Origin: an uncultured Candidatus Saccharibacteria bacterium
Lineage (GTDB): Bacteria > Patescibacteriota > Minisyncoccia > Spechtbacterales > HO2-43-30
DNA length: 64,000 nt
Reading direction: 5' to 3'
Assembly (NCBI GenBank): GCA_964504205.1
Contig: CAZDDE010000002.1
Coordinates: 11,505-75,504, forward strand
The notes below the pieces were generated by a model. It worked only from the letters and a program-made list of their open reading frames with translations. It made no database searches and was not told the origin of the DNA. Position numbers and translations under genes: made by a program. Shown here one piece after another: positions 42 through 25,998 of the stretch; within the stretch, counting starts at the first letter, position 1; the number at the start of each line of letters is the position of its first letter.

Positions 42-803
42 TTAGATCCTGACATTAATTTTGTTTTTGGCTAAGTATTTTTTTAACACGCTAATGCTAA
101 AATCCTCGTAGTGCAGGACTGAAGACAACGATACGGCATCACATTTTGTTTTAAGGATAACTTCTTTCACCGATTCCATACTGCCAGCTCCGCCATGCGC
201 GATTACCGGGACAGGAGAAAAATTAGTTATCGCATTCATCAACTCATGTTTGTAGCCCGATCTCGTTCCATCCTTATCTATAGATGTTACCAATATTTCT
301 CCTACTCCTAGATCGATAGCTTTTTTGGTCCATTCTATGACATCGACTCCGGTTTTTTCTCGGCCGCCATCTGTATAGGACTCCCATTTATTGGGCGCGA
401 TATTTTTAGCCTCGATGAATAATACTATACATTGCGAGCCAAATTGTCTTACTGCTTGCGGCAAAAATTCCGGGTGGTTTATTGCATACGTATTGATGGC
501 GACTTTGTCAGCTCCAGCCCTTAGCGCGTTATTAATGTCACTGATTGATCGTATTCCGCCCCCCACAGTAAATGGTATAAAGATGTTCTCGGAAACGGAT
601 TTTAAGAGGTCAAAATCAAGGTTGCGCTGATAGAGACTCGCTACAATGTCCATATAAATAAGTTCGTCTGCGCCTTCCTTATAGTATCGAGTTGCGAGTG
701 TCTTTGGCGAGCCGACCACGCGTAAGCCTTCCGTATGTATGCCCTTGACAACATTTGGCCCTTTGATATCAAGCCTTGGGATTATTCTGATAGGATTTGT
801 CAT
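42..803 (-). CDS. HisF-family cyclase subunit (imidazole glycerol phosphate synthase-like), WbuZ/PtmH-type as used for acetamidino sugar synthesis
   Basis: Full-length (beta/alpha)8 HisF-like sequence (…IPFTVGGGIRS…, …VIAHGGAGS…) embedded in a sugar operon, not a his operon. Confidence 0.75.
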   Translation of the reverse strand: MTNPIRIIPRLDIKGPNVVKGIHTEGLRVVGSPKTLATRYYKEGADELIYMDIVASLYQRNLDFDLLKSVSENIFIPFTVGGGIRSISDINNALRAGADKVAINTYAINHPEFLPQAVRQFGSQCIVLFIEAKNIAPNKWESYTDGGREKTGVDVIEWTKKAIDLGVGEILVTSIDKDGTRSGYKHELMNAITNFSPVPVIAHGGAGSMESVKEVILKTKCDAVSLSSVLHYEDFSISVLKKYLAKNKINVRI

Positions 804-852
804 ACAAGAATGATTTTATCGCGATAGTAATTTTTTATTACAGCCATTGTTT

Positions 853-1968
853 CTAACTATTTACATAGGTTATTATAGACTGCGCAATATACTTTAGGTC
901 CTTTTCTTTAAGTCCGATATACAGCGGCAACGCTAAAGTGTGGGCGCTTGTACTTTCCGAGATTGGGAAATCGTCTCTTTTATACCCGAATTCTTTTCTG
1001 TAGAAGCCATAGAGATGTATAGATGGGAAGTAAGCTTTTGAAGCTATCCCTCTTTCCGCCAGTGCAGCGATCAATGCATTCCTATTTATTTTTTTATTGA
1101 GCAGTTTTACAACATAGAGGAAAAAAGTGTGGGTGTTTTGCGAAGCAATAAACGGTGTTTGCAGTAAATTTTTATAAGGGTCGAAATGTTTGCTGTAAGT
1201 ATTTGCTATCTTTCGCCTCTCTGCTATCGCAAAATCCAGCCTTCTAAGTTGTGGTAATCCAAGAGCGGCGCTGATCTCGGTCATCCGGTAGTTATATCCC
1301 AGACGGCGATGATCCAGCCACTGCATGTTTTTGGCGCGCCCCTGATTGCGCAGCGACCAGCAGAGCTCATAAACACTTTTTTTATTAGTCACAATCATGC
1401 CTCCCTCTCCGGTCGTCATTTGCTTATTGGGATAAAAAGAAAATACAGCCGATTCCCCGAAGGTTCCGACGCGCCGATTGCCGTGTTCGGCCATGATTGA
1501 CTCGCAGGCATCTTCTATAATTTTTAATTTATACTTTTTCGCGAGGCTGCGGATAGAAGTCATATTGGCTGATTGTCCAAAAATATGCACAATCAGCATT
1601 GCCTTGGTTTTTGGGGTTATTTTCTGTTCAATAGCTAGCGGATCTATATTGTAAGTCAGCGGATCTATATCCGCAAATACCGGTTTTGCGCCAACATATA
1701 AAATCGCGTTTGCCGAAGATACGAATGAAAACGGGGTGGTGATGACCTCATCTCCTTTGCCGATGCCAGCGGCAATAAGCGCCAAATGCAATCCGGCGGT
1801 GCCGCTTGATACCGCGCAAGCATATTTTACCCCAAGCTTTTTGGCGAAAGCAACTTCGAATTCTACAGCCATCGGCCCTAGGCTTAAAGTGCCGGAACGC
1901 AAGGCTTCCAGCACCTGTTTTTCATCTCCTCTGGTTATGTAAGGTTTTGAAATGGGATATGTAATCAT
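853..1968 (-). CDS. DegT/DnrJ/EryC1/StrS-family PLP-dependent sugar aminotransferase
   Basis: Family-typical N-terminus and PLP-lysine region; lies between the HisF-like and formyltransferase genes. Confidence 0.85.
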   Translation of the reverse strand: MITYPISKPYITRGDEKQVLEALRSGTLSLGPMAVEFEVAFAKKLGVKYACAVSSGTAGLHLALIAAGIGKGDEVITTPFSFVSSANAILYVGAKPVFADIDPLTYNIDPLAIEQKITPKTKAMLIVHIFGQSANMTSIRSLAKKYKLKIIEDACESIMAEHGNRRVGTFGESAVFSFYPNKQMTTGEGGMIVTNKKSVYELCWSLRNQGRAKNMQWLDHRRLGYNYRMTEISAALGLPQLRRLDFAIAERRKIANTYSKHFDPYKNLLQTPFIASQNTHTFFLYVVKLLNKKINRNALIAALAERGIASKAYFPSIHLYGFYRKEFGYKRDDFPISESTSAHTLALPLYIGLKEKDLKYIAQSIITYVNS

Positions 1969-1974
1969 ACGTGC

Positions 1975-2805
1975 TTATTTTTTAAATATATTATGCACTA
2001 TCTTCATTACCTCATCGTTGATAAGTGTAAATTTTCGCCCTTTTATTGTTATCGTAGCGCCGCGATACGGAGGAAAAAAGAAAGCCCTTATTTTTTTATC
2101 AATGTCTTCCAGGGAATCTTTTTGAGGATTTACTTCCTTTAGTTCGTTTAGTTCCGGAGCGGTGAGATATAATCCTCCGCTATTTTTGTGCGTTTTTACT
2201 TTCCGTCCGTTCATAAAAGCATCTATTGTAGTTTTAAATAATTCCAAAAGTTTTTCTTGTGATTTTTTTTCCAGAGAAAGCGCAGTTTCCTTGCTGGAAT
2301 TTATTGCAAATTTTTTTACTTCAATAATAGGGCCGTTATCAAGTTCTTCCGAGTCTATAAAATGCGCACTCACGCCGTATTTTTTTCTTGCATCAAGAAT
2401 GGCCGTATTGTATCCGGCCCGACCCTTATAATCAGGCAGGGGGGCGGGGTGAAAATTGATACACCCAAGTTTCGCGATATTGATAAGAGGACTCTTAATC
2501 TTACGCCAGAAAAGATACGAGATAACGAGATCAGTGTTAAGAATTCGTTTATCGCATTTTGCTATTTTTTTGTAAATGATCCCCTCGTCATGGTATACGG
2601 GTATTCTGTATTTCTTTGCCGTAGTTGACAATTTAGGCATGTAGTCTTCTTTGGCGGGAGCTATAGCCATAGTTATGGACAACCCATTTTCTACTAAATA
2701 CTCAAGCGCTTTAGTAGCGCCGGGTTTTCTGCCCAAAAATATCACCGTTTTTATTTTTTGATTTTTTCTAAGCATGCGATCTTTCATCACTGTAACATAT
2801 CCCAA
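1975..2805 (-). CDS. Formyltransferase-family protein (Fmt/PurN fold), putative sugar N-formyltransferase with a C-terminal extension
   Basis: HPAPLPDYKGRAGYNTA motif resembles the formyl-transferase HxSLLPxxRG core; glycan-operon context. Confidence 0.55.
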   Translation of the reverse strand: MGYVTVMKDRMLRKNQKIKTVIFLGRKPGATKALEYLVENGLSITMAIAPAKEDYMPKLSTTAKKYRIPVYHDEGIIYKKIAKCDKRILNTDLVISYLFWRKIKSPLINIAKLGCINFHPAPLPDYKGRAGYNTAILDARKKYGVSAHFIDSEELDNGPIIEVKKFAINSSKETALSLEKKSQEKLLELFKTTIDAFMNGRKVKTHKNSGGLYLTAPELNELKEVNPQKDSLEDIDKKIRAFFFPPYRGATITIKGRKFTLINDEVMKIVHNIFKK

Positions 2806-3839
2806 GCGATTAACTCGTCGGCGAGGACCGTTCGCCTTGCTGTTTTGCCGATAATTTCATCAAAGTATTTAGGCGCAAGTCCCGTGCCGGGTCTTTTAAG
2901 GGCTAGGTCGTTTCGCCTTATGACGGTTTCGGCGAGGATGGGGCGCGCGGCAACAATGCTTTTTCTTGCAACTTTTGCCACTTCTGTTTCGGATTTTGTC
3001 GGCTTCTTTTTATAAGATCCAAGAGCCTTGGATACATTGCGTATGGCCTGCACCATTTGTTTGAGTTCATTCGGCTCAAGCGATGCCTTGTGGTCAGGCC
3101 CAGGCATTGATCTATCAAGCGTAAAATGTTTTTCGATTACACACGCCCCAAGACTGACGGCGGCAACAGCCACCTCTATTCCAACTGTATGATCGGAGTA
3201 CCCGACTTCTAGATCAAGCTCTTTTTTAAGTGTCAGCATAGCGCGTAAGTTAATCTCATCCATGCGTGCAGGATAATTGCTGGTACAATGAAGAACGATG
3301 ATTTTTGAATTGCCATTTTGTTTAATGACATGGACAGCCTCCTTGACTTCCGCAAGGGTTGACATGCCAGTGGATAAAATAATCGGCAAATTTTTTGCGG
3401 CGAGATTTTTAAGGTGCGGAAGGTTGTTTGTATCGGTAGATCCGACCTTAAACGCCGACACTCCAAGTTTAAATAAGAAGTTCGCGTCGTCAATAGAAAA
3501 TGGCGTGGACATAAATATAAGCCCTTTTTTTTCGGCGTATTTTTTAAGCGGAGCATGGTATTCGCGTTTTAGCTTAAGACGCGCGAGCATACTGTACTGG
3601 CTTTCTTTCTCGCCGATATTTTTATCCTGATATTTAGCGCGTTGGGCGTATTTTGTAACGAGGGTTTTGGGATCAAACGTCTGAAATTTTACGGCGTCGG
3701 CTTTAGCATAAGCGGCCGCGTCTATCAATTTTTTTGCCAGTTCCAGATCGCCATTATGGTTGACGCCGGCTTCGGCGATGATAAAAACGGGTTTGTTTGC
3801 GCCTATTATTTTATTTTCAATTTTTATAAAAGCTGACAT
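2787..3839 (-). CDS. NeuB-family nonulosonic acid synthase (sialic/legionaminic/pseudaminic acid synthase) with C-terminal SAF domain
   Basis: N-terminal IIAEAGVNHNGDLELAKKLID…KFQTF is the NeuB hallmark. Confidence 0.85.
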   Translation of the reverse strand: MSAFIKIENKIIGANKPVFIIAEAGVNHNGDLELAKKLIDAAAYAKADAVKFQTFDPKTLVTKYAQRAKYQDKNIGEKESQYSMLARLKLKREYHAPLKKYAEKKGLIFMSTPFSIDDANFLFKLGVSAFKVGSTDTNNLPHLKNLAAKNLPIILSTGMSTLAEVKEAVHVIKQNGNSKIIVLHCTSNYPARMDEINLRAMLTLKKELDLEVGYSDHTVGIEVAVAAVSLGACVIEKHFTLDRSMPGPDHKASLEPNELKQMVQAIRNVSKALGSYKKKPTKSETEVAKVARKSIVAARPILAETVIRRNDLALKRPGTGLAPKYFDEIIGKTARRTVLADELIAWDMLQ

Positions 3840-3844
3840 AAAAT

Positions 3845-4870
3845 TTACTCGAGTACTGTTTGCTTGCCGGTTTTTGCGCTTTTCTCCAGTGCGAATAGCG
3901 CTTTAAGGAAACGGAGGTTTTCCGCAAATGTGAATGGATATTTTTTCCCTCCGTTTATAGCACCTAAAAAATGTCCTATTTCCTCCTCGTACATATCTTC
4001 TGTGGTTATGTAATTCTTTTCGCTTCTGCCCCCTTTTAAGTTTATTATCTTTTGCCGTTTTCCCGATGCTTGGTAAAGTTTAATTTTATGGTCCAACCAC
4101 TCCCATTCCAGGACCCCGCAAGATCCAATAACCCGTAAGGTGCGGAACGGCTTTCTTGACAGTAAATCTATGGCTATACTTCCCACTGCGCCGTTATTGA
4201 ATTCCAGAATAGCAAAATATGCATCGTCGGCTGGCATATCTAGAGCAGATATTTTTTTTGTTATTCCGCAGATTTTTTTTACTTCGCCAAGGTCAAGGGC
4301 ATACGTTAGCCATCCTAACTCAAAGGCGAACATTTCGCGGCAAGCTCCAGTATCTTTTTTTGAAAAATATACTTTTCGGTAATCTTCCCAGGGGTGCCAA
4401 TCCGGCAGGTATTGGCCCATATGGTATTGAAACGACAGCACATCACCGATTCTTCCGAAGTTTATAATCTGGCGAATTTTTTTGACTGCGGGATGAAATC
4501 TCCAGCTACAGGAGGGAACTCCAACAGAAGTTCCGCCAAGAAGTTTAAGAAGCTGATTATATCCGACATCGGTTGTGGGGTGCTCGACAAAAAAGTGCTT
4601 CTTATTGCGGGCGGCGCGCAGAAAATAGCTGTGGTGCTGGTCGGGCGGGGTTGATACTATAATGACATCAGGATTTATCTCGGTATATGTTTTTCTAAAA
4701 TCAGTTGATGCACGTATAGAATATTTTTCGTTTGCCTCCCGGCAACGTTCCTGCGAAGTATCAAATCCAAAAATTTTGGCAGGGGAGATGCCATGAAACA
4801 GCAGATTTCGTATTCGCCGCTTGCCCATCGACCCGAGGCCTATTTGCATAAAGTTGTATTTTTTTAGCAT
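3845..4870 (-). CDS. Gfo/Idh/MocA-family NAD(P) oxidoreductase (PtmF/PtmA-like)
   Basis: N-terminal Rossmann QIGLGSMGKRRIRNL; this family accompanies legionaminic acid loci. Confidence 0.6.
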   Translation of the reverse strand: MLKKYNFMQIGLGSMGKRRIRNLLFHGISPAKIFGFDTSQERCREANEKYSIRASTDFRKTYTEINPDVIIVSTPPDQHHSYFLRAARNKKHFFVEHPTTDVGYNQLLKLLGGTSVGVPSCSWRFHPAVKKIRQIINFGRIGDVLSFQYHMGQYLPDWHPWEDYRKVYFSKKDTGACREMFAFELGWLTYALDLGEVKKICGITKKISALDMPADDAYFAILEFNNGAVGSIAIDLLSRKPFRTLRVIGSCGVLEWEWLDHKIKLYQASGKRQKIINLKGGRSEKNYITTEDMYEEEIGHFLGAINGGKKYPFTFAENLRFLKALFALEKSAKTGKQTVLE

Positions 4871-5625
4871 ATCGGGAAATTCTTTATGCGATTTTTGATT
4901 TCGTGTGTGTGATTGTATATGAACTCGGCTAAAACGAAGTCCTCCGGCGTATCAAGATCAACCGAGCGCCATGCGTCCACTATCACTGCTTTTGTTTTCT
5001 TTGGGAAAAAGGTTTTTGCTTTGATAAATACGTTATATTTAATTAAATATACAAAACAGCCATTGAGTTTATATCCAGGAGGAAAGGCCTGCATCTGGAA
5101 TCCTTTCAGGCGTTTGCCTTGGATAAATTTTGGGGCAACCTTCGGGATATTGGCTAGGACAAGATTGCCATTTTTTGAGAGATTATAGAGCAATGGATGA
5201 GTGGAGCAGACTGTCAGCACTGCGTCGGTGTTTTTTTCGCGTATCTTTCGAACGCACTTTAGAATATCGGCCTTTTCGCGCAGTGGAGAAGTTGGCTGGA
5301 GAAGAGCGACGTAATCAGGTTTATAACTTTCATTTTGGTCAAGTTTTTTAAGGATATTGAGGGCGCTATCGGCGACTAAACTTTTATCTCCGGCAAGGCG
5401 CACCGGGCGCAGAAAGGGAACTTCCGCGCCATACCTTTGCGCTATTGTTGCTATCTCCGCGCTGTCGGTATCCAGGATAACCCGGTCAAAGATCTTGAGA
5501 CCCAGAGCTTGGTGAATGGTATGTCCAATAAGCGGTTTGCCGGCGAAGAGCCGTTTGTTTTTACTCGGTATTCTCTTTGATCCGCTGCGCGCCGGTATAA
5601 TAGCTAAAATTTTTTGTCTTTGCAT
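4864..5625 (-). CDS. Acylneuraminate (nonulosonate) cytidylyltransferase, NeuA/LegF/PseF family
   Basis: IIPARSGSKRIPSKN N-terminal motif of CMP-NeuAc synthetases. Confidence 0.8.
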   Translation of the reverse strand: MQRQKILAIIPARSGSKRIPSKNKRLFAGKPLIGHTIHQALGLKIFDRVILDTDSAEIATIAQRYGAEVPFLRPVRLAGDKSLVADSALNILKKLDQNESYKPDYVALLQPTSPLREKADILKCVRKIREKNTDAVLTVCSTHPLLYNLSKNGNLVLANIPKVAPKFIQGKRLKGFQMQAFPPGYKLNGCFVYLIKYNVFIKAKTFFPKKTKAVIVDAWRSVDLDTPEDFVLAEFIYNHTHEIKNRIKNFPIC

Positions 5626-6566
5626 TTTTGTAAGATATTTACAGGGTCTTCTCGTGCTATTTCAAGACAATTTGGGTTGATTTTTTCCCCATTAGGCGGG
5701 ACCATATTTGATCGAAATCCACATACTATACCAATGTTTGATAAAATTTTCAAGGTGACTTTACTATACGAATTGAGGGGGTGCGACATCGCAACAATTT
5801 TTTTATTGCAGATTCTTTTAATATGCTCAAAGTTTTTTACATATTCATCGAGCTGTTTTTTGCGGGAGAGTTTTACAATCCGGAAGGGATGATTGTACGA
5901 ATGCAGTCCCACGCAATGCCCCTTCGCGCTTATATTTTTAAGATCACGGTTGGTAAACCACAAACCTTTAGCTATTTGAGAAATATTGGCGCGTTTATTG
6001 TGCATCATCTTACCCATTATATTTTCAAATTTTTTTTGAGATGACAGTTCGTTGCGGATAAATCTATATTTTAAGTCGTTCGTTGAATAAAAAGGGAATA
6101 ATCTTTGTGTGGCGCGGGAATACTTTTTAAATTTTTGTTCATTGAGTTGCGCAAGGATCGCTTTGTCGCAATTACTAAAAAAAGTATTGAAAAATTCATT
6201 GATATCCTTAAAGTATTTTGCCGAAAAGTAGCTATAAATTTCAGATTTTACCAATCCCTTTTCAAATACTGAAGAGTAGATAAACCAAAATGCTTTTATG
6301 CTGTATTTCTCAAGAATGGGGAGACATATTTCATATTGGCATTTAAGGCCGTCATCAAAAGTTATGCAGATATCTTGGGCGTTTAGTTTGTTATGTTTTA
6401 GCTTATAGAGCCATTCGTCGGCCGAAAGAATATTTTTCAAGCCCACGCAATGAAGTATGTATTCAAACTCTCTGTCGGTGATAGAACCTTGGCCCAGGCC
6501 CGATGAGATTGCGCGGTGCACGCGATGAAACATTAAGCCGTGCGGGAATTGGACGGAGTTTATCAT
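5604..6566 (-). CDS. Polysaccharide deacetylase (CE4/NodB-like) family protein
   Basis: ITFDDG motif and overall length; start overlaps the upstream gene. Confidence 0.5.
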   Translation of the reverse strand: MINSVQFPHGLMFHRVHRAISSGLGQGSITDREFEYILHCVGLKNILSADEWLYKLKHNKLNAQDICITFDDGLKCQYEICLPILEKYSIKAFWFIYSSVFEKGLVKSEIYSYFSAKYFKDINEFFNTFFSNCDKAILAQLNEQKFKKYSRATQRLFPFYSTNDLKYRFIRNELSSQKKFENIMGKMMHNKRANISQIAKGLWFTNRDLKNISAKGHCVGLHSYNHPFRIVKLSRKKQLDEYVKNFEHIKRICNKKIVAMSHPLNSYSKVTLKILSNIGIVCGFRSNMVPPNGEKINPNCLEIAREDPVNILQKCKDKKF

Positions 6567-7786
6567 TTTTTGTAGGCGATATAATCAACGTGCCTGACGC
6601 CGTTGGCTCCGCGGAAGAGATGTTTTGCTTTTTTGATATACGTATGTACTTTGTCTAAATTCTTGTCTTCCACGGCGTCCAGAACTCCTTTCGCTTCCCG
6701 CATCAATTCATTCATTCGTTTGACAGTATATGCAGTCAGATTTAGATTTGCCAAGTCGCTCAGGTATTCATTAACCCTTTTTTTTACAATGGTACTCTCA
6801 ATTAAGGAATCCGCGCGGCAATTGGACATATAATTAACCAAAGAAGACCAGCTTTCCGAAATCTCGGACAATGGCTTTAAGATTTTTGGAACCTCAACGG
6901 CGTCATCATATTGGTGCATCAGCCAGAGGGCCTCGGCGAACACGCCGGTTTGCTTTAGTGACTGCGGTTGAAACTTTGGTTTATGGTGGGCAGAATCTGA
7001 AAATACCGGAAAAAAAATGGGTGGGTAGGAGGAGTAGAAAACCAGGTTATTTTTATCAAACCATTGCAATACTTCTTCTACTGATGGGTCATTTTGCTGC
7101 TGAACGACCCAGCGATCAAAGATAATCGCCCGCCGCGTCCGGGGAACAAATCTTTGACTGCGATCGATGTCCTCTTTAAACAGGCGCTCTGCTATCTCAA
7201 CCATTTTATTGGGAGTGTCGGCAAATCTATAGATGATGTATCGTTGCAGCATATTTTGGAATCCTCCAGCTTTGTTCGGATCTCCAAAAATTATATAGCC
7301 GCCCGGTTTCAAAAACGATGCGATCTTTGAAAATAATCCTTCTTTATCGTCGGTATGCGACAAAACTCCCCGGCAATGAACGATGTCATATTTTTTATTT
7401 GTCTTGTAGTCAAAAAGAGATGAATTAAAGAAGTGGTGTTGATTATAATTATTGGTGTATTTTTGAAAGACCTCTTTGGCGATCTGGATGGCCTTGTGAT
7501 TCATGTCAACCAGTGTGCAGCGTGCTCCCCAATTCGCGAGATACACTGTGTTTTCTCCTGTTCCAGCGCCGCAATCAAGCAAAGTGCGGTCCTGAAACAT
7601 GGGGGGAGGAAATTTTAGCAAGTCGCGGTAGAGGTACTCCGCATTCGCTGCCCATTCTTTATATTCGTTTTCCGATTTGTCCGAAAAATATATGGAAGGA
7701 ATTTCCTCCTCGAAGGTTGCAAGTACTGACGTCTCAACCGCCTTGATATGCTTTGTCCTAGTTTGTGTTTTAGCCGCGTGTTTCAT
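6563..7786 (-). CDS. Class I SAM-dependent methyltransferase with a long C-terminal extension
   Basis: LLDCGAGTGENTVYLA glycine-rich SAM motif I, followed by an acidic motif II. Confidence 0.6.
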   Translation of the reverse strand: MKHAAKTQTRTKHIKAVETSVLATFEEEIPSIYFSDKSENEYKEWAANAEYLYRDLLKFPPPMFQDRTLLDCGAGTGENTVYLANWGARCTLVDMNHKAIQIAKEVFQKYTNNYNQHHFFNSSLFDYKTNKKYDIVHCRGVLSHTDDKEGLFSKIASFLKPGGYIIFGDPNKAGGFQNMLQRYIIYRFADTPNKMVEIAERLFKEDIDRSQRFVPRTRRAIIFDRWVVQQQNDPSVEEVLQWFDKNNLVFYSSYPPIFFPVFSDSAHHKPKFQPQSLKQTGVFAEALWLMHQYDDAVEVPKILKPLSEISESWSSLVNYMSNCRADSLIESTIVKKRVNEYLSDLANLNLTAYTVKRMNELMREAKGVLDAVEDKNLDKVHTYIKKAKHLFRGANGVRHVDYIAYKK

Positions 7787-7798
7787 AATTGTTATGGA

Positions 7799-8983
7799 TT
7801 AATCGAAGTAACTTTCCAACTTGCTGTCCCGCACTGTGTCTAGTGTAGCGCAATGTATTCCTCCGCCTTGAGTGTAAATATGACGCATTCTTACGGGTAT
7901 CACTGTAATTTTATGCTGTTCAAGCACACGAATAAGGTTTGTCTGGCGCTCATCCGCAATGACTGTTTTTTGATCTAACGATAATAGATTCATTCCAACC
8001 CACGGCGAAGCTGTTAATTCCAGATTTGTTTCAAATCCTAAGGCTTGTATTTTTTTCGCTATTGGATCTCTAACTTCTTTTTGGAATTTTATTTCATGTT
8101 CCGTTACCGGGGCTACATCCGCAAACCATATCTTGTCCCACTTGTTAAACATTTTTGGCAGGTTCTTTTCATTTGCCCGTATGCTGTTTACCAATACAAG
8201 GCCGGGTCTTAAGCACATTAATGTTGAATCAATATGGCTAGATCGGTATATTTTTTCAGTGGTGTGCACTTTGTACTCATCGCCCAAGACATGCTGTAGC
8301 CACTTTGCTGCCAGATAATTCCCAGACGAAGAGACAAGGTAGAGAAGGTCTTTGCCCATTCTCAATACACTGGCGGCTTCAAATAAAATTTCGTTTTCAG
8401 TTACTTTATGCAGTTTTTCTATTCGGCCATCTGTGAGTTGTTGATAGCGAATATCCTCTTCTGTAAGCTTTCTTGCGTTGTGATCTCGATAGTAGGGAAT
8501 TATAACATCTCCGGTAAGTTTTGGTTTGGGGCCGCATATCCAGCGAAACCCTTTTTGCATGTATTGATACCATATCGGATAGAGAGCCGTAGCTTCAAAG
8601 TATCTGCTTTTGAGCATGGATGGGCTCTCGACCACAGTATCGCCAATAACCAAATGTAAGTCGCGAACATTGTAAATGTTATTTCCGGTGGAATGCCAAA
8701 AAGGAGTGGCATACATTTTTGAAATATCGTGCACGCTGGGCCGGTACACTTTGGCGCCATATTGCCGAAGCGCTTCGCACAGGCCGGTAAGATCTTCGTT
8801 TATTTCGTCCAGAAACCACTTTGGATAGGCCTTTCTCGCGAGCGTATAGGCCTTTTTTATTACTGATTCTGGGGCGGGTTTCGGCTTTGACCAAGTTAAA
8901 ACTGCCATAGTCCCTTCGGCCGTTCCGACGATGACTTCCCGAAGTTTATCCCATTCATTATGGCTATTGATTCTACTTGCCAT
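7799..8983 (-). CDS. Amidinotransferase (AGAT/StrB-like, guanidino-group-modifying-enzyme superfamily)
   Basis: C-terminal GGGIHCATLD active-site cysteine motif and HIDSTLMCLRPGLVLV core match glycine/inosamine amidinotransferases. Confidence 0.65.
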   Translation of the reverse strand: MASRINSHNEWDKLREVIVGTAEGTMAVLTWSKPKPAPESVIKKAYTLARKAYPKWFLDEINEDLTGLCEALRQYGAKVYRPSVHDISKMYATPFWHSTGNNIYNVRDLHLVIGDTVVESPSMLKSRYFEATALYPIWYQYMQKGFRWICGPKPKLTGDVIIPYYRDHNARKLTEEDIRYQQLTDGRIEKLHKVTENEILFEAASVLRMGKDLLYLVSSSGNYLAAKWLQHVLGDEYKVHTTEKIYRSSHIDSTLMCLRPGLVLVNSIRANEKNLPKMFNKWDKIWFADVAPVTEHEIKFQKEVRDPIAKKIQALGFETNLELTASPWVGMNLLSLDQKTVIADERQTNLIRVLEQHKITVIPVRMRHIYTQGGGIHCATLDTVRDSKLESYFD

Positions 8984-9041
8984 ACGTCAATTAAACACTA
9001 TACTATATTTATAGTCAAATTACAGTCAAACTGGATGCGTT
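8984..9041. promoter_or_regulatory. AT-rich divergent intergenic region between the minus-strand glycan operon and the plus-strand membrane protein gene
   Basis: Two divergently oriented operons start here; the sequence is AT-rich with TATA-like stretches. Confidence 0.3.
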
Positions 9042-11540
9042 ATGTTTACTAGACATTTCTCAAAAGAAGTTATTTTGATTTCCCTTTTCTTTGTGGTCTT
9101 GGTTTGCGCCGGTATTTTCATGCATTACACGGGTTATACCTTTTTTGCAGTTGGCGAGTTGGGGCGCTATCAACCATGGCGCGACTATATTGAAGGCGGC
9201 TCCTGCCCCCTGCGTTCCGGAGACGATTTGTATGAGCATGATTTTATTTCAAGGGAACTGACATATCTTCGAGACAACCCATACCAACAAACATATTCGG
9301 AAAGAATAATGAGCGGCTACCCTATTCGCGATTCATATTTGGCCAATCAGTATACTGCCTTTAATTTTCTTAACAAATTTTTGCCAGCCCCTTCCAGCGT
9401 TAATTTTTCCGCTCTTTTGATGCTCTTTCTTAGTTTTACGCTCGGGTATTTTATCGCGCGCAGTTTAAATTTTAAGTATTACTATGCCGCGCTTCTTGGA
9501 ATTTTATCTATAACCCTTCAGTACGCGGGTCTCTTTGAGGCGTGGAACGCCGTTCTGATCGGATATGGTTTTGTAATCCTCGGGCTCATTTTGTTCTATC
9601 GGCATGATCGCGTCTACTGTTTTGTAATTCTTTCAATGTTGGGCGCTCTGCTTATCTTCCTATCTAGTATCTATCAATTTTACCTCTATACTGCGATCAA
9701 CCTCATGCTGTTGAGTTTGTTTTATTTTTCACTGGCACGCAAAAGGAAATTTTTGGTAATGTGGCTTGCGCTCATTGTTATTTTCGTAATTTCCGCGATG
9801 CTAGTCAATTTTTCAATGACGAGCCATTACGAACAACTTTCTTCTTCGCAGAAAATCAGTCATGACGTCGGTCTTGGGGAGTTAATTAAAAGGAAGATGT
9901 TTGCCACCGACCCTATTTCATGGATATGGGGGGGCGTCTCAACTCATACCAAGGTAATAAAACATATTTTGGGGGTAGAAGCCGGAGAGGAGTTCCTGAC
10001 ACTTATCCAAAATCGCGGAGTCCAAACGCAAGGGGCGGCCTATCTCGTCCTGATGGGTATTGGGCTTTATCTCTTATTTCACAAGTCCAAGCAGTACGTT
10101 TTCGTGATGCTTTTTTGGATTTTGTACGCAATGGGCATCTCACACCTCGCTTTTGTCTTTATATTTGGCGAGCCATTTTTGAGCGAAACATCAATTCCAG
10201 CGCCGTTAGTTGTGCTTATCTTGGGTAGTTTTGCGGTGATTTATGCCATAAAAGAACTTTTGGATCAACGTGTCAAGTTAAGCCATACCGCGAGAATTAT
10301 TGTTTTTGGGGGTGTCGGTGTCATTTTACTTGCTTCTGGTTCCATGCTGATTTGGGATGCGCTAGCTCATAAGCGGGTCCTGCTCGGAGTCATTTTTACA
10401 TTCCTTAGTGCGATCCTTCTTCTCCTTACGGTAAAAATTTTTACAGGAGGAAACAGAGTCGCTCCGCAACAGAAATTTTTATTTGCGGCGCTGATTGCCG
10501 TGGCGATAATGTTTCCAACCGGGGCGAAATTATTTCTATGCTTTAAGCCGGCCACTCTGGTTATGAACCGTTCACAGTTTTACTTTCCGCAAACAAAGTT
10601 TCAAGAAGCGATTGCGGAGAACCTGGATATTGCGCGTGTTGGGATGATTCAAACGTCCAGGGAAAAAAAAGACACACTTTTGCAGAACCTTCCCGTTTGG
10701 TTGGGGTTACCAACGCTAACCGGATACCGCAACACCATTTTGAAGGAATACTTTGATTTATATATGTATCATAAGATTCTGATAGAGAATGGCGAATCAA
10801 ACTCCGGAAAGTTATTTGAGGAATTTAGAACAAAAGTGGATTATGTGACTAATAAGTTGAGCGCGTTTGAAGTTAGCAATTCTAATTTTTTCCTTCCTCC
10901 TTGGACACAGCGTTACTTCGCCCTCCACGGCGTTAATGGCATCATCGGTCCGGCGGATTTGATCATAAGAAATGAGGATTGGGAGCTTGCCGCAAGAGCA
11001 GACGGACTCTCTCTCTGGAAGGATAGGAAAAAGCCGCACGATTTCTTTTTCTCGCGAGAATCCATAGTTATTCCAGACGACGTTTTCCGTATGGCATACA
11101 TTCTGAATAGTCCCGACTTTGATATGCAAAAACAGGTTGTGTTGAAGGAAGGATTTGGGGCTAAATACAGCACAACCGCAACTTCTACTTTTTCTTTTGA
11201 AATTTTAGAAAAAACAGATGGCTATCGCCTCATCGGCGCCGATCTTGACACGCAAGGTATTCTCACCATTCCAGTTACATACAATAAGCATTGGGAGGCA
11301 AAATTCTTGAGCGACAATGGCACAGCAACAGCTTTAAAAACAATGCATGCAAACCATGCTTTTCTAGGTGTTGCGCTTCCTCCCGGACAAGGAAAGGTTG
11401 AGTTAATATACAACGATAAGCCAAAATTACAGAATGGGATTGTAGCGGGAGGAGGTGTTATACTCTTGGCGGTATTAATACTTTTTACTAAGGTTTATAG
11501 CCGTCGCGTCAAGACTAAACTTAATGAGCTTGCTGAATAA
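9042..11540 (+). CDS. Large polytopic membrane protein with a C-terminal extracytoplasmic domain (YfhO/GT-C-like, putative glycosyltransferase)
   Basis: More than ten hydrophobic helices, then a ~300 aa soluble domain; the last 5 codons and the stop are supplied by the repeat element. Confidence 0.4.
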   Translation: MFTRHFSKEVILISLFFVVLVCAGIFMHYTGYTFFAVGELGRYQPWRDYIEGGSCPLRSGDDLYEHDFISRELTYLRDNPYQQTYSERIMSGYPIRDSYLANQYTAFNFLNKFLPAPSSVNFSALLMLFLSFTLGYFIARSLNFKYYYAALLGILSITLQYAGLFEAWNAVLIGYGFVILGLILFYRHDRVYCFVILSMLGALLIFLSSIYQFYLYTAINLMLLSLFYFSLARKRKFLVMWLALIVIFVISAMLVNFSMTSHYEQLSSSQKISHDVGLGELIKRKMFATDPISWIWGGVSTHTKVIKHILGVEAGEEFLTLIQNRGVQTQGAAYLVLMGIGLYLLFHKSKQYVFVMLFWILYAMGISHLAFVFIFGEPFLSETSIPAPLVVLILGSFAVIYAIKELLDQRVKLSHTARIIVFGGVGVILLASGSMLIWDALAHKRVLLGVIFTFLSAILLLLTVKIFTGGNRVAPQQKFLFAALIAVAIMFPTGAKLFLCFKPATLVMNRSQFYFPQTKFQEAIAENLDIARVGMIQTSREKKDTLLQNLPVWLGLPTLTGYRNTILKEYFDLYMYHKILIENGESNSGKLFEEFRTKVDYVTNKLSAFEVSNSNFFLPPWTQRYFALHGVNGIIGPADLIIRNEDWELAARADGLSLWKDRKKPHDFFFSRESIVIPDDVFRMAYILNSPDFDMQKQVVLKEGFGAKYSTTATSTFSFEILEKTDGYRLIGADLDTQGILTIPVTYNKHWEAKFLSDNGTATALKTMHANHAFLGVALPPGQGKVELIYNDKPKLQNGIVAGGGVILLAVLILFTKVYSRRVKTKLNELAE

Positions 11541-11671
11541 TTGCTTCTGGCTCATTCTCGCCCCGCCAGCGCGGGGCTGCGAGGCTCGGCCTGTTTTGCT
11601 CCGACTGCGGTCGGAGACCATGCCAAAACAGGCCTCAAATCCGCCAGAAGTAATTATTCAGCAAGCTCATT
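11523..11671 (+). mobile_element. MITE-like palindromic repeat element, copy 1 (~29 bp terminal inverted repeats, internal stem-loops)
   Basis: Left end aatgagcttgctgaataattgcttctggc and right end gccagaagtaattattcagcaagctcatt are reverse complements with one mismatch; near-identical copy at 14622-14769. Confidence 0.75.
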
Positions 11672-13815
11672 GGATCGTGAAGAGCGTAATTAACTGGGGA
11701 AAAAAGTACAATATAGACCTGCAAAAATTACTGCTTAATAGGTGGTTTTTGTTGATTTTAGCGATTAAAATTGTCGCCAGTTTTCTTTTTGCTTCAGATT
11801 TTATGCTGAAGGGATTTGTGCCGTTTGTAAATTACTTTGTATCTACCGGTTTTGATAATCCCTACAATTTTTTTTATAACCTGGGACAGCCAGAAGCATT
11901 TCCGTATCCGCCCGCCATGTTATATATACTTTCTGTCGCAAGAATTTTTTTCTATCCGGTCCTGATAATTGACTGGCCGACAGTAACCTTTGCTCACTTG
12001 TTCATCATGCGTATCCCTATTTTATTGGCTGATATTGCAATATATTTAATACTTTGTAAGTGGTTGGAAACGAAGGAGAAAAAAGTGCTGTTGTATTATT
12101 GGGCTTCGCCAGTCCTCTTTTTTATCAATTATTTTCACGGGCAACTAGACGTCATTCCCACTGCCTTACTTTTTATATCTCTACTCTTTTTGTTTGCCAA
12201 AAGGGAAGCTACAGCATTTATAATACTGGGTTTGGGCATTGTGGCCAAGACGCACTTATTGGCAGTATTACCGTTTTACTTTATCTACTTAATGATCAAT
12301 AGATATCCCGTTCAAAAAGTTATCTTGTATTCCATGTTGCCGCTCGGTGTCTTTTTTGCATTCGCGTGGCCGTATTTGGCATCGAGCGGATTTACGCAGA
12401 GTGTCTTTGGTACCGAAGAAGCCAACAAATTGTTTCTAGTGTTTGTTCCATATCTTCATAATGACTTGCGGCTTCTTTTAGCGCCGGCGGCAATTTTGAT
12501 TCTTTTCTTTAACTTCTTTTCGTATAAGAAATTAAACAAGGATGCCTTCTTGTTAATTCTTGGACTGTTGTTCACTATGCTCGTCTTGTTTGTACCCCCA
12601 ATGCCCGGCTGGTTTTATTGGTCCATTCCATTTTTCGTGTACTTTTTTGCAAAGTACAAAGAAATTCCAAAGTTTAGTTTTTGGTTCTTGAGCATTGCCT
12701 ATATGCTGTACTTTATATTTAGTAAGGATGCTAAAATTTTTTCTAGCTTCGAACTATTAAACCCCGGTTTCATAACCACCGTTAGTCCATTTACGACGCT
12801 TCACGCGCTGGGTATCAATATGGACATACTTGTTAATGTTATTTTTACCCTGCTGATAGCGGCTCTCGTCATGAACGCAGTGTGGATTTATCGTATGGGC
12901 GTGCGCAGTAATTTAGAATATAAGGTCACGGATAGCCCGACTTTAATTGGAATTGGAGGAGATTCTGGAGCCGGGAAAAACACCCTGGCCAATCTAATCG
13001 TCCAACTTTTTGGAAAGGATAATGCCGTTTGCGTTGAGGGCGATGACGCGCACAAATGGGAGCGGAATCATGAAAGTTGGGAAAAATACACGCATTTGAA
13101 TCCCAAAAGCAATTTGTTGCACCGCGATTTGCGGCAAACGTCGGAATTGAAAATGGGTGAAGCAATTAAGCGACAGCTTTACGATCATTCATCCGGCCAT
13201 TTCACATTACCAAAGGATGTCGAGCCGAGTAAGATTGTTCTATATACCGGTTTGCACCCGTTTTATCTGAGTAAAATGCGCAAGGCTTTTGATATAAAAA
13301 TATATGTGGATCCAAATGAAGATCTGCGCAAGCATTGGAAAATAATGCGCGACAAAAAATACCGAGGGTACTCCAGAGAAGAGGTAATTAGACAACTAGA
13401 ATCTAGAGAGGAGGATTCCGGAAAATATATACGTCCACAACGGGAATTTGCCGATATAATTATCACGCTCATGCCAAAAGGCGAGTTAATTGAAGATCAA
13501 GAGCCTGGCTTGTGGATGCGTATCATATGCGATAATTCATTACACGTTGATCCGTTTGTCGAGCAACTTTCAAGTTGCGGTACCGTGGATGTGCGGCATA
13601 GATACGAAGATGATTTGCATAGGCAATGCATTGAGTTCGACGGCCGTATTTCTGCCGAGGAAATAAACCAGCTTGCGCATGGCCTTATCCCTTACTTCGA
13701 GGAACTTACCGATGGCAAGCACAAATGGGCGGAGGATTTAGACGGCATACGCCAGTTGTTCATACTTTATTACTTTAGCGAATTGCGAAAGTCTAATCAA
13801 ACATATAATGCATGA
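11524..13815 (+). CDS. Fusion protein: N-terminal polytopic membrane domain (PIG-M/DUF2029-like GT-C mannosyltransferase-like) plus C-terminal phosphoribulokinase/uridine-kinase-family P-loop kinase domain
   Basis: C-terminus GIGGDSGAGKNTLA (P-loop), LYDHSSG, LYTGLHPF and DIKIYVDPNEDLRKHWKIMRDKKYRGYSREEVIRQLESRE track PRK-family motifs. The N-terminal 400 aa are hydrophobic with a GFDNPYNFF loop motif. The annotated N-terminus is repeat-encoded, so the true start is uncertain. Confidence 0.6.
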   Translation: MSLLNNCFWLILAPPARGCEARPVLLRLRSETMPKQASNPPEVIIQQAHWIVKSVINWGKKYNIDLQKLLLNRWFLLILAIKIVASFLFASDFMLKGFVPFVNYFVSTGFDNPYNFFYNLGQPEAFPYPPAMLYILSVARIFFYPVLIIDWPTVTFAHLFIMRIPILLADIAIYLILCKWLETKEKKVLLYYWASPVLFFINYFHGQLDVIPTALLFISLLFLFAKREATAFIILGLGIVAKTHLLAVLPFYFIYLMINRYPVQKVILYSMLPLGVFFAFAWPYLASSGFTQSVFGTEEANKLFLVFVPYLHNDLRLLLAPAAILILFFNFFSYKKLNKDAFLLILGLLFTMLVLFVPPMPGWFYWSIPFFVYFFAKYKEIPKFSFWFLSIAYMLYFIFSKDAKIFSSFELLNPGFITTVSPFTTLHALGINMDILVNVIFTLLIAALVMNAVWIYRMGVRSNLEYKVTDSPTLIGIGGDSGAGKNTLANLIVQLFGKDNAVCVEGDDAHKWERNHESWEKYTHLNPKSNLLHRDLRQTSELKMGEAIKRQLYDHSSGHFTLPKDVEPSKIVLYTGLHPFYLSKMRKAFDIKIYVDPNEDLRKHWKIMRDKKYRGYSREEVIRQLESREEDSGKYIRPQREFADIIITLMPKGELIEDQEPGLWMRIICDNSLHVDPFVEQLSSCGTVDVRHRYEDDLHRQCIEFDGRISAEEINQLAHGLIPYFEELTDGKHKWAEDLDGIRQLFILYYFSELRKSNQTYNA

Positions 13816-24092: not shown

Positions 24093-25004
24093 TCATAATT
24101 TTAATTTTAAGTTCAGTAATAAATTTTCCGCGGCCTGTTTCTCCATTAAAATGCGCGCCTCTTTGGCATAAGAGCCGATATGGGGGGTTAAGATGATGTT
24201 TTCAAGTTGTGTCAACTTTCCGGTATAGGGCTCTTCTGAAGGAGTATCAATTGCCGCGTTGGCAAGTCTCTTGGTACTTAGCGCGTCGTATAAGGCGTCT
24301 TCATCAACTAATCCGGCGCGCGAGGCATTGATTAAAATGGCGCCTTGCTTCATAAGGGCGATTGATGAACGGTTCATAATACATCCGGCATCACCGGGAA
24401 CATGAAGGGTGATAATATCTGAACTAGCTATGACGTTTTCTAAGCTTGTTATTCTTACCCCCAAACTATCTTGGGGAGGGGCGATATCATAGGCGATAAC
24501 TATAGCGCCAAATGCTTTAAGAATCCGGTACACTTCTTTGCCAATTCTGCCAAATCCAATAATGCCGACAGTCTTCCCCTCAAGGAGCCAGCCCATGGAT
24601 TTTTCCCATTTGCCTGCTCGTATGGATCTATCGCTTTGCGATACGCCTCTTAGGCAGTCCAGGATCAAGCCAATAGTTAGTTCGGCCACTGCTCTTGTTG
24701 GTCCCCATGGGGTATTATAAACTTTTATTCCAAGCTGTTCGGCCGCTTGCATATCCACATTATCAACTCCAGCGCCGCAACGCGAGATCACGCGCAGCCG
24801 CTTCAACTGCTCAAGGGTTTCGCGATTCAAAATTTCGGTTCCGGCAATTATGCCAATAGCATCGCTGGCATACTCAATCAATTCGCTTGAAGCAAGTTTG
24901 CGGTGCAGGGGATTTAATCGAGGCGTCAAATTAGCGCGCTTTAACGCATCAAGCGGGCTCGTATCAAATTCTCCAAAACTGGTTGTTGAGATAAAGATAT
25001 TCAT
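24093..25004 (-). CDS. D-isomer-specific 2-hydroxyacid dehydrogenase family (PGDH/GDH-like)
   Basis: GKTVGIIGFGRIGKEV NAD motif; the start is set at MNIFISTTSF, so the longer N-terminus in the ORF track is probably spurious. Confidence 0.8.
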   Translation of the reverse strand: MNIFISTTSFGEFDTSPLDALKRANLTPRLNPLHRKLASSELIEYASDAIGIIAGTEILNRETLEQLKRLRVISRCGAGVDNVDMQAAEQLGIKVYNTPWGPTRAVAELTIGLILDCLRGVSQSDRSIRAGKWEKSMGWLLEGKTVGIIGFGRIGKEVYRILKAFGAIVIAYDIAPPQDSLGVRITSLENVIASSDIITLHVPGDAGCIMNRSSIALMKQGAILINASRAGLVDEDALYDALSTKRLANAAIDTPSEEPYTGKLTQLENIILTPHIGSYAKEARILMEKQAAENLLLNLKLKL

Positions 25005-25005
25005 A

Positions 25006-25998
25006 TCATATTTTTTGCGCGACGATGCGCATATGTGAACTAAATCCGCATTCGGCAATCCACCGCTGCAGGCGCGCTTTCTCGCGGGCACTTGCTTTAT
25101 TCAGGATTGATTTCCAAAGACGTCCGATATCGACATTATCCTTCCGATACATTCCCTCAACGATATCTAAGTCTATCTTACCAGGAGTTGCCGATTCTAT
25201 AACTCTAAAACCGTTCGATTCAAGAAGTAATTTTATAGAGTGCGGATTAAAAAGATTCAAGTGATGCGGCGGGAAAATATTTTTTGACTTTTCCCATAAG
25301 ATTTGAATGTCAAACCCTTGGCCATTTGGCGCCGTGATAAAAAGGCAGCCACCCGTCTTGAGACGTTTATGCACCTCTCCGAGAAAGTACCGTGGATTCT
25401 GAAGGTGCTCCAGTAGTTCAAACATGCAGAGCAGGTCAAATTGATTATTCCATTTTTGCGGCATTTCCTCAAGTGATGTTTGAATGGTTTCCAGATTTTT
25501 TTGGCGGCATATTTCGGCCATTTCCATAGATGGATCTATGGCTATTAATTTGGCATTTGGCCAAAGTTTCCCGAGTTCCTTCAGGAATATCCCAAACCCT
25601 GCTCCGATATCTCCAATTGTCATTTTCTGATATTGGGGGAAAGTATCTTTAACATATTGAGCCCGCGGGGTAAAAATTTTTTTTCGCCGCGTTTCAGCTA
25701 CTGGCTTGAAAAATTCATTTACCCAAAATTTTGTAGAAGGGGAGTCAATATATATTTGATTTAGGTTTTTAAGGCTGGGACGCGGGTTGGCAAAGAGGGT
25801 TTCACATTCTGCGCATAAGACATACCAGAATCCCAATTTTTTGAACTGACGCTTATACTTTTTGCTATGACAGGCGATACAGGGAATTTCTGCAAAGCCC
25901 TGTTTGTGCTTTAAGATAAGCCGCTCAGCATCTTTTCTTGAGAGGCGTAGATATTCATCAAATGCTTCTTTTTTTCTTATTTCATTTTCTTTCATCAA
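25006..25998 (-). CDS. Class I SAM-dependent methyltransferase with N-terminal Cys4 zinc-ribbon
   Basis: CIACHS…CAEC ribbon; IGDIGAGFGIF motif I; LEHLQNP motif. Confidence 0.6.
   Translation of the reverse strand: MMKENEIRKKEAFDEYLRLSRKDAERLILKHKQGFAEIPCIACHSKKYKRQFKKLGFWYVLCAECETLFANPRPSLKNLNQIYIDSPSTKFWVNEFFKPVAETRRKKIFTPRAQYVKDTFPQYQKMTIGDIGAGFGIFLKELGKLWPNAKLIAIDPSMEMAEICRQKNLETIQTSLEEMPQKWNNQFDLLCMFELLEHLQNPRYFLGEVHKRLKTGGCLFITAPNGQGFDIQILWEKSKNIFPPHHLNLFNPHSIKLLLESNGFRVIESATPGKIDLDIVEGMYRKDNVDIGRLWKSILNKASAREKARLQRWIAECGFSSHMRIVAQKI

Follow-up and report, generated by a model that had tools for sequence, protein, structure and literature searches.

Why does an operon for nonulosonic acid biosynthesis begin with a gene for an amidinotransferase, and what would such an enzyme modify? 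The question is raised by a 64,000-nucleotide stretch of contig CAZDDE010000002.1, called the window throughout, which comes from a bacterium of the candidate phyla radiation (CPR, Patescibacteria). Nine genes at 42-8983 open a glycan-biosynthesis island of about 45 kb, and among them an amidinotransferase (AmT) of the AGAT/StrB1 family stands with a CE4-family metallo-deacetylase (CE4) and a methyltransferase (MT) beside the core genes of a sugar of the legionaminic acid (Leg) type. We lean, if only a little, towards the reading that CE4 would expose an amine on the Leg-type sugar, AmT would amidinate it from arginine and MT would methylate the product, with a formyltransferase and the WbuX/WbuY/WbuZ enzymes working alongside.

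A full-text search of the open-access literature returned no paper that pairs amidinotransferase with nonulosonic, legionaminic or pseudaminic. The combination of guanidino with nonulosonic returned irrelevant papers only, and no description of the cassette was found. A nonulosonate locus with this tailoring cassette thus occurs in no searchable open-access paper. The sequence-only reading of this DNA had presented an amidinotransferase in a nonulosonate operon as unusual, which holds for the literature but not for genomes, where the combination is widespread beyond this window.

The amidinotransferase and its active site

AmT is encoded by gene 1 of the operon (7799-8983, minus strand, 394 aa) and ends in a C-terminal GGGIHCATLD motif with the active-site cysteine, Cys378, as the sequence-only reading had proposed. 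No NCBIfam model matches AmT and Pfam returned only weak tails of the arginine deiminase (ADI) and PAD families, with the generic ADI model at E 1.6e-4. As these collections gave little, the family placement was based on sequence and fold searches of the PDB. The only phmmer matches were StrB1 (E 3.8e-75), SxtG (6e-49), AGAT (~1e-44), and HsvA (7e-43), and identity reached 43% over 327 aligned positions with StrB1, 34% with SxtG, and 33% with AGAT. An AlphaFold2 model of AmT from 36 homologs (pLDDT 81, pTM 0.83) was searched with Foldseek, and the top seven chains were all amidinotransferases (StrB1, AGAT, SxtG, HsvA) at E 2e-32 to 2e-26 and target TM-scores of 0.78-0.84. Dimethylarginine dimethylaminohydrolase (DDAH) and ADI were reached only from E ~1e-10. 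The neighbour-joining tree, a check that had been suggested beforehand, placed AmT among the amidinotransferases, and the nonulosonate-linked AmTs formed one monophyletic clade within this radiation, apart from the StrB1, AGAT, and SxtG clades.

Judged by these comparisons and the predicted fold, AmT groups with transferases and not with hydrolases. On all three grounds (sequence, fold, and tree) we reject a primary-metabolism hydrolase akin to ADI or DDAH. A position among the deiminases or DDAH and a lack of operonic linkage in relatives had been named as the outcome that would speak against the proposal; neither was observed.

The closest characterised relative is StrB1 of streptomycin biosynthesis (1bwd; Foldseek E 2e-32, target TM-score 0.84), whose acceptor is the amine of a phosphorylated aminocyclitol, a small anionic molecule that resembles a sugar. 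StrB1 and AmT have in common the Cys and His of catalysis as well as the Asp, Arg, and Ser that bind arginine. They differ in that StrB1 belongs to an aminoglycoside cluster and has an Asp in its triad, whereas AmT belongs to nonulosonate operons, has a Glu, and falls in a separate clade. AGAT, SxtG, and HsvA have the same fold and the covalent Cys-amidino mechanism of the family at 33-34% identity (AGAT and SxtG). Their acceptors are amino acids or polyamines, whereas the acceptor predicted for AmT is a nine-carbon amino sugar acid.

The AmT family comprised 2,069 clusters at 90% identity (E <= 1e-5), the best 120 of which were all 67-100% identical to the query, and it shrinks to very few representatives at 50% identity. 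Its members are annotated at source as "hypothetical protein", "glycine amidinotransferase" or "DDAH", the last in some annotations of the Joint Genome Institute (JGI). Plasmid and phage collections held only distant relatives, at no more than 37 and 30% identity, respectively, and a scan of IMG/VR found none. Multi-domain fusions of distant homologs (with nonribosomal peptide synthetase A-T, TauD, DAO, or class II tRNA synthetase domains) were set aside as uninformative for this clade. Distant amidinotransferase homologs are also encoded by the Campylobacter group II/III phages NC_027997 (CP220) and NC_027996 (CPt10) and by the Synechococcus phage PQ898602 (S-SCSM2R). They are 24-30% identical, adjoin radical-SAM or 2-oxoglutarate-dependent oxygenase genes, and are unrelated to the cassette.

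The residues D108, H250, D252, R269, and C378 of AmT are invariant in 36 clade members and S326 is kept in 35 of them. Together, D108, H250, D252, R269, S326, and C378 align with D170, H303, D305, R322, S355, and C407 of AGAT, in which we take D170, D305, R322, and S355 to bind the arginine donor and C407, H303, and D254 to form the catalytic triad. The acid partner of the catalytic His, D254 in AGAT, is Glu202 in 36/36 clade members, whereas Asp occupies this position in AGAT, StrB1, SxtG, and 37/40 non-clade homologs. A conserved, clade-typical Arg (R247, motif YRSSH) lies two residues before the catalytic-His region, and insertions relative to StrB1 are found at about residues 165-192 and 291-323. 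From its residues and relatives, AmT is predicted to take the amidino group of arginine and place it on an amine in the sugar pathway.

The glutamate also admits another explanation, namely that the Glu202 clade has changed to a hydrolase or deiminase, which might for example trim a sugar amidine or guanidine. Glu202 departs from the family-norm Asp in the triad, and a Glu as the acid partner of the His is the arrangement of the hydrolytic relatives ADI and DDAH; the weak generic ADI match in Pfam and the DDAH labels from JGI point in the same direction. The change from Asp to Glu is conservative, however, and all arginine-binding residues are kept. The 43% identity to StrB1 and the grouping with transferases by sequence, fold, and tree also argue against a hydrolase, as does an Asp-bearing sister clade that likewise occurs in a nonulosonate locus (L030). 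A conversion to hydrolysis is, in our judgement, very improbable.

Cassette linkage in relatives

A scan seeded on AmT, with one genome per species, yielded 38 loci, 35 of them from the main clade, which were analysed by tblastn and by clustering of open reading frame families. They came from Komeili-, Giovannoni-, Yanofsky-, and Harrisonbacteria, Pelagibacteraceae (SAR11), and single-cell genomes of Prochlorococcus, as well as from Acidobacteriota, Planctomycetes, Leptospiraceae, Burkholderiales, SAR202, Latescibacterota, and others. AmT adjoins the same CE4 family in 31/35 main-clade loci and the same 407-aa MT in 23/35, while three more have a different small methyltransferase. Reciprocally, AmT was found within about 3 kb in 63 of 80 metagenome loci that were seeded on the CE4 alignment.

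Linkage was counted in a pooled set of 53 loci with at least 4 kb of flank on both sides. CE4, AmT, and MT occurred together in 29 of them and CE4 with AmT in 15, CE4 alone in three and AmT alone in six, and MT without AmT in none. AmT therefore stands beside CE4 in 44/53 loci, and MT homologs of 40-74% identity adjoin AmT in 29/53 and never occur without it. The distribution is nested, with MT within AmT and AmT largely within CE4, which fits an order of CE4, then AmT, then MT. Flanking genes for NeuB, LegF, NeuC or PtmE-like proteins were found in 42/53 loci.

The neighbours in relatives include NeuB, a PtmE-like CBS-nucleotidyltransferase, a Gfo oxidoreductase in the PtmF position, a LegF-like cytidylyltransferase, and a PtmA-like short-chain dehydrogenase/reductase (SDR), as well as PglD/LegH-like acetyltransferases, LegB-like SDRs, and DegT. 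The NeuC/LegG proteins of relatives match TIGR03568 with 367 bits, above the cut-off of 235.9. Two loci, L041 and L043, carry AmT-CE4-MT inserted in the middle of a Leg operon, between the PtmE-like and PtmF-like genes. Their gene order is NeuB, NeuC, PtmE-like, AmT-CE4-MT, PtmF-like, LegF, PtmA-like, LIC12162 transferase, LegB-like, and LegC-like. The comparison supports the view that CE4, AmT, and MT form a conserved, mobile, horizontally distributed cassette. A one-off fusion of neighbourhoods was ruled out by the conserved linkage.

CE4 (gene 3, 5604-6566, minus strand, 320 aa) matches Polysacc_deac_1 with 62.5 bits, and its domain is interrupted by an insertion of about 100 aa. The motif residues T69, D71, and D72 (TFDD), H222, and H226 do not vary among 16 homologs; the H-x-x-x-H metal ligands of motif 2 are retained, so that the metal ligands and the catalytic Asp are intact. 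CE4 is predicted to be an N-deacetylase that exposes the acceptor amine. MT (gene 2, 6563-7786, minus strand, 407 aa) is a class I S-adenosylmethionine (SAM)-dependent methyltransferase with its domain at residues 48-182 (Methyltransf_23/31/11/12/25), followed by a C-terminal extension (about 220 aa) that is conserved but belongs to no known family. Its best PDB matches are phosphoethanolamine N-methyltransferases, which are weak (E 2e-10), and a sequence search detected no similarity between MT and GAMT.

No signal peptide or transmembrane segment was found in the CE4, AmT, and MT sequences, by which the three proteins are cytoplasmic. This location fits an action on soluble substrates at the nucleotide-sugar level. 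It also sets CE4 apart from the secreted CE4 polysaccharide deacetylases, which are exported.

In another account, AmT acts on a different amino sugar of the glycan or on an amine of the finished polymer or glycoprotein, and the genes are neighbours only as members of one surface-glycan island, not through a common substrate. The window belongs to an island with several other sugar pathways, the AmT of L004 and L006 has no nonulosonate genes within 10 kb, and the only Leg-type gene of L001 is DegT. Against this account, the cassette lies inside a Leg operon between PtmE-like and PtmF-like genes in unrelated phyla, nonulosonate genes flank 42 of the 53 pooled loci, and the cytoplasmic location of all three proteins speaks against modification after export. 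We regard a substrate elsewhere in the glycan as quite improbable.

Several genes accompany the cassette or its parts. CE4 occurs without AmT in the Leg-type loci L062:1467-16938, L124:5-13896, and L120:315-2582, which carry WbuZ/WbuY/WbuX and a methyltransferase of about 239 aa instead. CE4 would thus have a role of its own, possibly in making free-amine nonulosonates. LIC12162-family transferases (TIGR04331, 302 bits) adjoin the cassette at L002:6355-8151, L041:16054-17937, and L043:432-2285. CPR loci instead have a 509-aa protein with a weak match to the BFO_1060 glycosyltransferase family (L028:8508-10037), and from these matches both are candidate transferases for the modified sugar. A search of the window found no homolog of the 509-aa protein, and clustering of the open reading frames at 1-30000 of the window gave no LIC12162 member. 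NodU-like carbamoyltransferases are found in four cassette loci (L025 at 1625-3379, L001, L006, and L022) and hint at further N- or O-carbamoyl tailoring.

The sugar core and the proposed tailoring steps

The core genes had been matched to both legionaminic and pseudaminic acid (Pse) pathways, of which the Leg part is supported and the Pse part is disfavoured. The NeuB/LegI-type synthase (gene 6, 2787-3839, minus strand, with NeuB and SAF domains) scored 463.7 bits with TIGR03569, above the cut-off of 399.65, and 311 bits with the PseI model, under the cut-off of 340. The LegF/NeuA-like cytidylyltransferase, or CMP-nonulosonate synthetase (gene 4, 4864-5625, minus strand), matched CTP_transf_3 (87.7 bits, E 1.3e-24) and reached 150 bits with the PseF model, under its cut-off of 205.7. 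The pyridoxal phosphate-dependent aminotransferase of the DegT family (gene 8, 853-1968, minus strand, LegC/PseC-like) matched PF01041 with 406 bits and scored 327 bits with PseC and 269 bits with the LegC family, both under the cut-offs. A Gfo/Idh/MocA oxidoreductase with N- and C-terminal GFO_IDH_MocA domains (gene 5, 3845-4870, minus strand) holds the PtmF position beside LegF, as in Leg loci, and this pair of genes recurs in relatives. Relatives also carry NeuC/LegG, PtmE-like, PtmF-like, LegF, and PtmA-like genes. The NeuB scores, above the cut-off of the NeuB/LegI model and under that of PseI, and the NeuC/LegG genes of relatives support a Leg-type rather than a Pse-type core; on the same grounds, a pseudaminic acid pathway is disfavoured.

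The sugar N-formyltransferase (gene 7, 1975-2805 as called, minus strand) matched Formyl_trans_N with 64 bits. Its PDB matches were Met-tRNA formyltransferase, GDP-perosamine N-formyltransferase, a 243-aa formyltransferase (4nv1), ArnA, and WlaRD, and the catalytic motifs, N-x-H and Asp, are recognisable in its sequence. Its true start is probably the ATG at 2787, which gives 270 aa as called on the overlapping public contig L040, and not the TTG at 2805.

The HisF-like gene (gene 9, 42-803, minus strand; His_biosynth 214 bits) is a HisF paralogue of the WbuZ/AglZ glycosyl-amidation type. It scored 287 bits with the hisF model, 253 with WbuZ, and 189 with AglZ/HisF2, just under the curated equivalog cut-offs for hisF and WbuZ (299.7 for WbuZ). 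The 5' end of gene 10, a HisH/WbuY-like glutamine amidotransferase, occupies bases 1-55 and leaves the window at its left edge; its N-terminus reads MSGSKIKISIVDYGVGNL from the ATG at 55 on the reverse strand. Contig L040 has this gene complete, with 214 aa, followed by a PP-loop (SGGKDS) protein (gene 11, truncated) that matches the WbuX N-acetyl sugar amidotransferase model TIGR03573 at E 4.4e-56. By these family matches, the operon includes a complete module of the WbuZ-WbuY-WbuX acetamidino type. The earlier assignment of the HisF-like gene to an acetamidino HisH/HisF pair agrees with the trio on L040. The HisH partner expected upstream does exist, but it lies transcriptionally downstream, from 55 off the left edge of the window.

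Taken together, the operon would make and CMP-activate a Leg-type 5,7-diamino nonulosonic acid and tailor both of its nitrogens. DegT would install the 4-amino group on a nucleotide-linked 6-deoxy-HexNAc, and the formyltransferase would N-formylate this amine, with no LegH-type acetyltransferase in the locus. NeuB/LegI would condense the hexose with phosphoenolpyruvate and the LegF-like enzyme would produce the CMP-sugar. The cytoplasmic CE4 would strip the N-acetyl group that is left, probably that at N5, which derives from GlcNAc, and free an amine. AmT would load the amidino group of L-arginine on Cys378 as an S-amidino intermediate and pass it to this amine, giving a guanidino group and ornithine. 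The 407-aa MT would then methylate the product, most simply on a guanidino nitrogen, which would parallel AGAT followed by GAMT in creatine synthesis. Alternatively, the WbuZ-WbuY-WbuX trio may turn an acetamido into an acetamidino group, so that a cell may make more than one variant and mixed products are likely. The surface sugar that results would be net-neutral or zwitterionic. A guanidino- or amidino-modified nonulosonic acid had been suggested before; the enzyme families, their linkage, and the Leg core support it, and from sequence we infer not only the guanidino product itself but also which amine accepts the group, where on the sugar it sits, in what order the steps run, and where methylation occurs.

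The nitrogen that receives the amidino group might be a different one. AmT could amidinate the 4-amine made by DegT/LegC on the nucleotide-hexose, the later N7, before condensation, and CE4 would then act independently on the other nitrogen, which would be left free, formylated, or methylated. The LegC product already bears a free amine, so that no deacetylase is required, and the acceptor of StrB1 is a small amino-cyclitol phosphate. DegT is kept in some AmT loci without CE4 (L017, L030), and CE4 in Leg loci without AmT (L062, L124) must have its own function. Yet many cassette loci carry a LegH/PglD-like acetyltransferase, replaced here by the formyltransferase, which would compete for the 4-amine. 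AmT also adjoins CE4 (44/53) far more consistently than DegT, and NeuB/LegI would need to accept a charged 4-guanidino hexose. We consider amidination before condensation unlikely.

The pairing of AmT with MT could also be read without a sugar acceptor, as the synthesis of a free creatine-like guanidino compound that is unrelated to the sugar or is later joined to it as an N-acyl substituent. AGAT and GAMT carry out exactly this pair of reactions, amidination and then N-methylation, and nonulosonates with amino-acid-derived N-acyl groups are known. The order of the AmT and MT genes mirrors this logic, but MT is without detectable similarity to GAMT and AmT is nearest to StrB1, not AGAT. No attaching ligase or acyltransferase is conserved with the cassette, and its conserved partner, a deacetylase, would have no role in such a scheme. 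A free guanidino compound therefore seems very improbable to us.

Besides Glu202, several observations weigh against amidination of an amine exposed by CE4 on a Leg-type sugar. Six AmT loci (L004, L006, L017, L030, L037, and L016) are without a recognisable adjacent CE4, although L016 has a diverged CE4 on the other strand, and two of the six, L004 and L006, are those without nonulosonate genes within 10 kb. The operon in the window is without homologs of NeuC/LegG, LegB, PtmE, and LegH, so that the Leg assignment rests on the NeuB scores and the relatives; tblastn found no NeuC or CBS-nucleotidyltransferase homolog anywhere in the 64-kb window. The hydrolysing 2-epimerase (LegG/NeuC), LegB, and PtmE-like genes are present in most related loci and may here sit beyond the left end of the window. 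Three N-modifying activities (formyl, acetamidino, and amidino) face two nitrogens, which makes the assignment of positions uncertain, and the trio or AmT might act on another sugar of the glycan. The matches of MT are generic and without a specificity signal, and the PDB matches do not separate N- from O-methylation. A guanidino-nonulosonic acid is reported in no searchable open-access paper. Finally, a +14 Da species in Candidatus Kuenenia stuttgartiensis was interpreted as O-methylation (bioRxiv 10.64898/2026.04.20.719630).

The same organism offers a parallel for the steps proposed before amidination. The CMP-nonulosonates measured in Ca. Kuenenia stuttgartiensis, which accumulates them, bear one N-formyl group and one free amine, and its Leg-like cluster holds a deacetylase and a formyltransferase (bioRxiv 10.64898/2026.04.20.719630). 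No amidinotransferase was reported in this cluster, and its deacetylase is likened to CE4 by description. By analogy, the Kuenenia experiments set a precedent for what the formyltransferase and the deacetylase would do in the present operon and for tailoring of the CMP-sugar.

The CMP-Leg pathway of Campylobacter jejuni (LegB/C/H/G/I/F, PtmE/F/A) is represented in the window by NeuB/LegI, LegF-like, LegC-like, and PtmF-like genes. The whole set is found in relatives, in the same local order. Here the formyltransferase replaces LegH and the cassette is additional. Nonulosonates and further amino sugars receive acetamidino groups from WbuX/WbuY/WbuZ and from PtmG with PtmH of C. jejuni (Leg5Am7Ac, Leg5AmNMe7Ac). 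The acetamidino group gives a nitrogen of Leg a cationic substituent of the amidine type, optionally N-methylated, that neutralises the carboxylate of the sugar, as the proposed guanidino group would. The acetamidino route keeps the acetyl carbon and uses glutamine-derived ammonia, whereas in the proposed cassette route CE4 would remove the acetyl group and the guanidino carbon would derive from arginine. The system resembles a hybrid of a Campylobacter-type Leg pathway, a Kuenenia-type deacetylase and formyltransferase pair, and StrB1-type amidination that precedes a methylation, the order known from creatine synthesis.

Operon setting and biological meaning

The nine co-directional genes had been assigned to their families beforehand, and profile and PDB searches confirmed each of them. 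Their open reading frames lie exactly within 42-8983, all on the minus strand, with gaps of 5-49 nt or overlaps of at most 22 nt. The amidinotransferase had been described as the final gene, which the minus-strand orientation reverses: AmT is the first, promoter-proximal gene and the HisF-like gene is the ninth. These errors of orientation in the sequence-only reading leave its conclusion unchanged. The operon has at least 11 genes, because L040 continues with the HisH-like and then the WbuX-type gene, and the region holds its 5' nine-elevenths. A sigma-70-like site (TTGACT-16-TATAGT, 10/12 consensus matches) is found at 9002-9029 on the minus strand, in the 58-nt divergent intergenic region upstream of gene 1. 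A promoter scan found sigma-70-like sites in the region to be no more numerous than in shuffled sequence, and the site is a tentative candidate for the operon promoter, by its consensus match.

Two large membrane proteins are encoded divergently from the operon at 9042-11540 and 11524-13815, both on the plus strand. The one of 832 aa has no Pfam or NCBIfam match and the one of 763 aa has a C-terminal phosphoribulokinase/uridine-kinase domain; both are candidates for glycan transfer or export. Further into the island, a second cytidylyltransferase (CTP_transf_3, E 4.5e-46) is found at 24093-27540 on the minus strand with an HpcH/HpaI aldolase, a D-2-hydroxyacid dehydrogenase, and a SAM methyltransferase. 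A GDP-mannose-4,6-dehydratase-type SDR and a C-methyltransferase adjoin this set, which may represent a second CMP-activated sugar-acid pathway in the island. Around 48000, where the glycan island ends and housekeeping genes begin, among them SecA (50209-52770) and a UvrD/PcrA-like helicase, the GC content rises in a step, from about 0.43 to about 0.48. The step fits an island of distinct composition that was possibly acquired horizontally. The SecA protein shares 69-75% identity with proteins of Candidatus Spechtbacteria/Spechtbacterales, which places the host among the CPR bacteria.

The computed mass of a guanidino/acetyl-Leg (C12H22N4O7, 334.1488) is 0.0112 Da apart from that of Leg5Ac7Ac (334.1376). 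A difference this small makes mis-assignment at low resolution possible, and guanidino forms may hide under "di-N-acetyl" nonulosonates. They may have been overlooked partly through this closeness in mass.

Whether natural guanidino-bearing Leg-type acids (N-amidino, often N-methylated) exist and are made by a dedicated, horizontally spread cassette stands evenly poised in our view. If they do, they would constitute a new class of zwitterionic sialic-acid-like sugars and a new sugar chemistry, in which arginine-dependent amidinotransferases join glycan tailoring. A seemingly large, conserved clade of amidinotransferases that is mostly annotated as "hypothetical" would gain a function. Sugars made by the cassette would decorate many uncultured and abundant bacteria, including CPR/Patescibacteria, SAR11, Prochlorococcus, Acidobacteriota, and others. 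As terminal sugars of the cell surface, nonulosonic acids govern how phages adsorb, how the immune system recognises a cell, what charge its surface has, and how cells interact with each other, and their N-substituents are what receptors and phages meet. The cassette is found in hypervariable surface-glycan regions of abundant marine bacteria as well as in tiny CPR genomes, and with such a distribution it would bear on phage-host arms races and on the surfaces of episymbionts.

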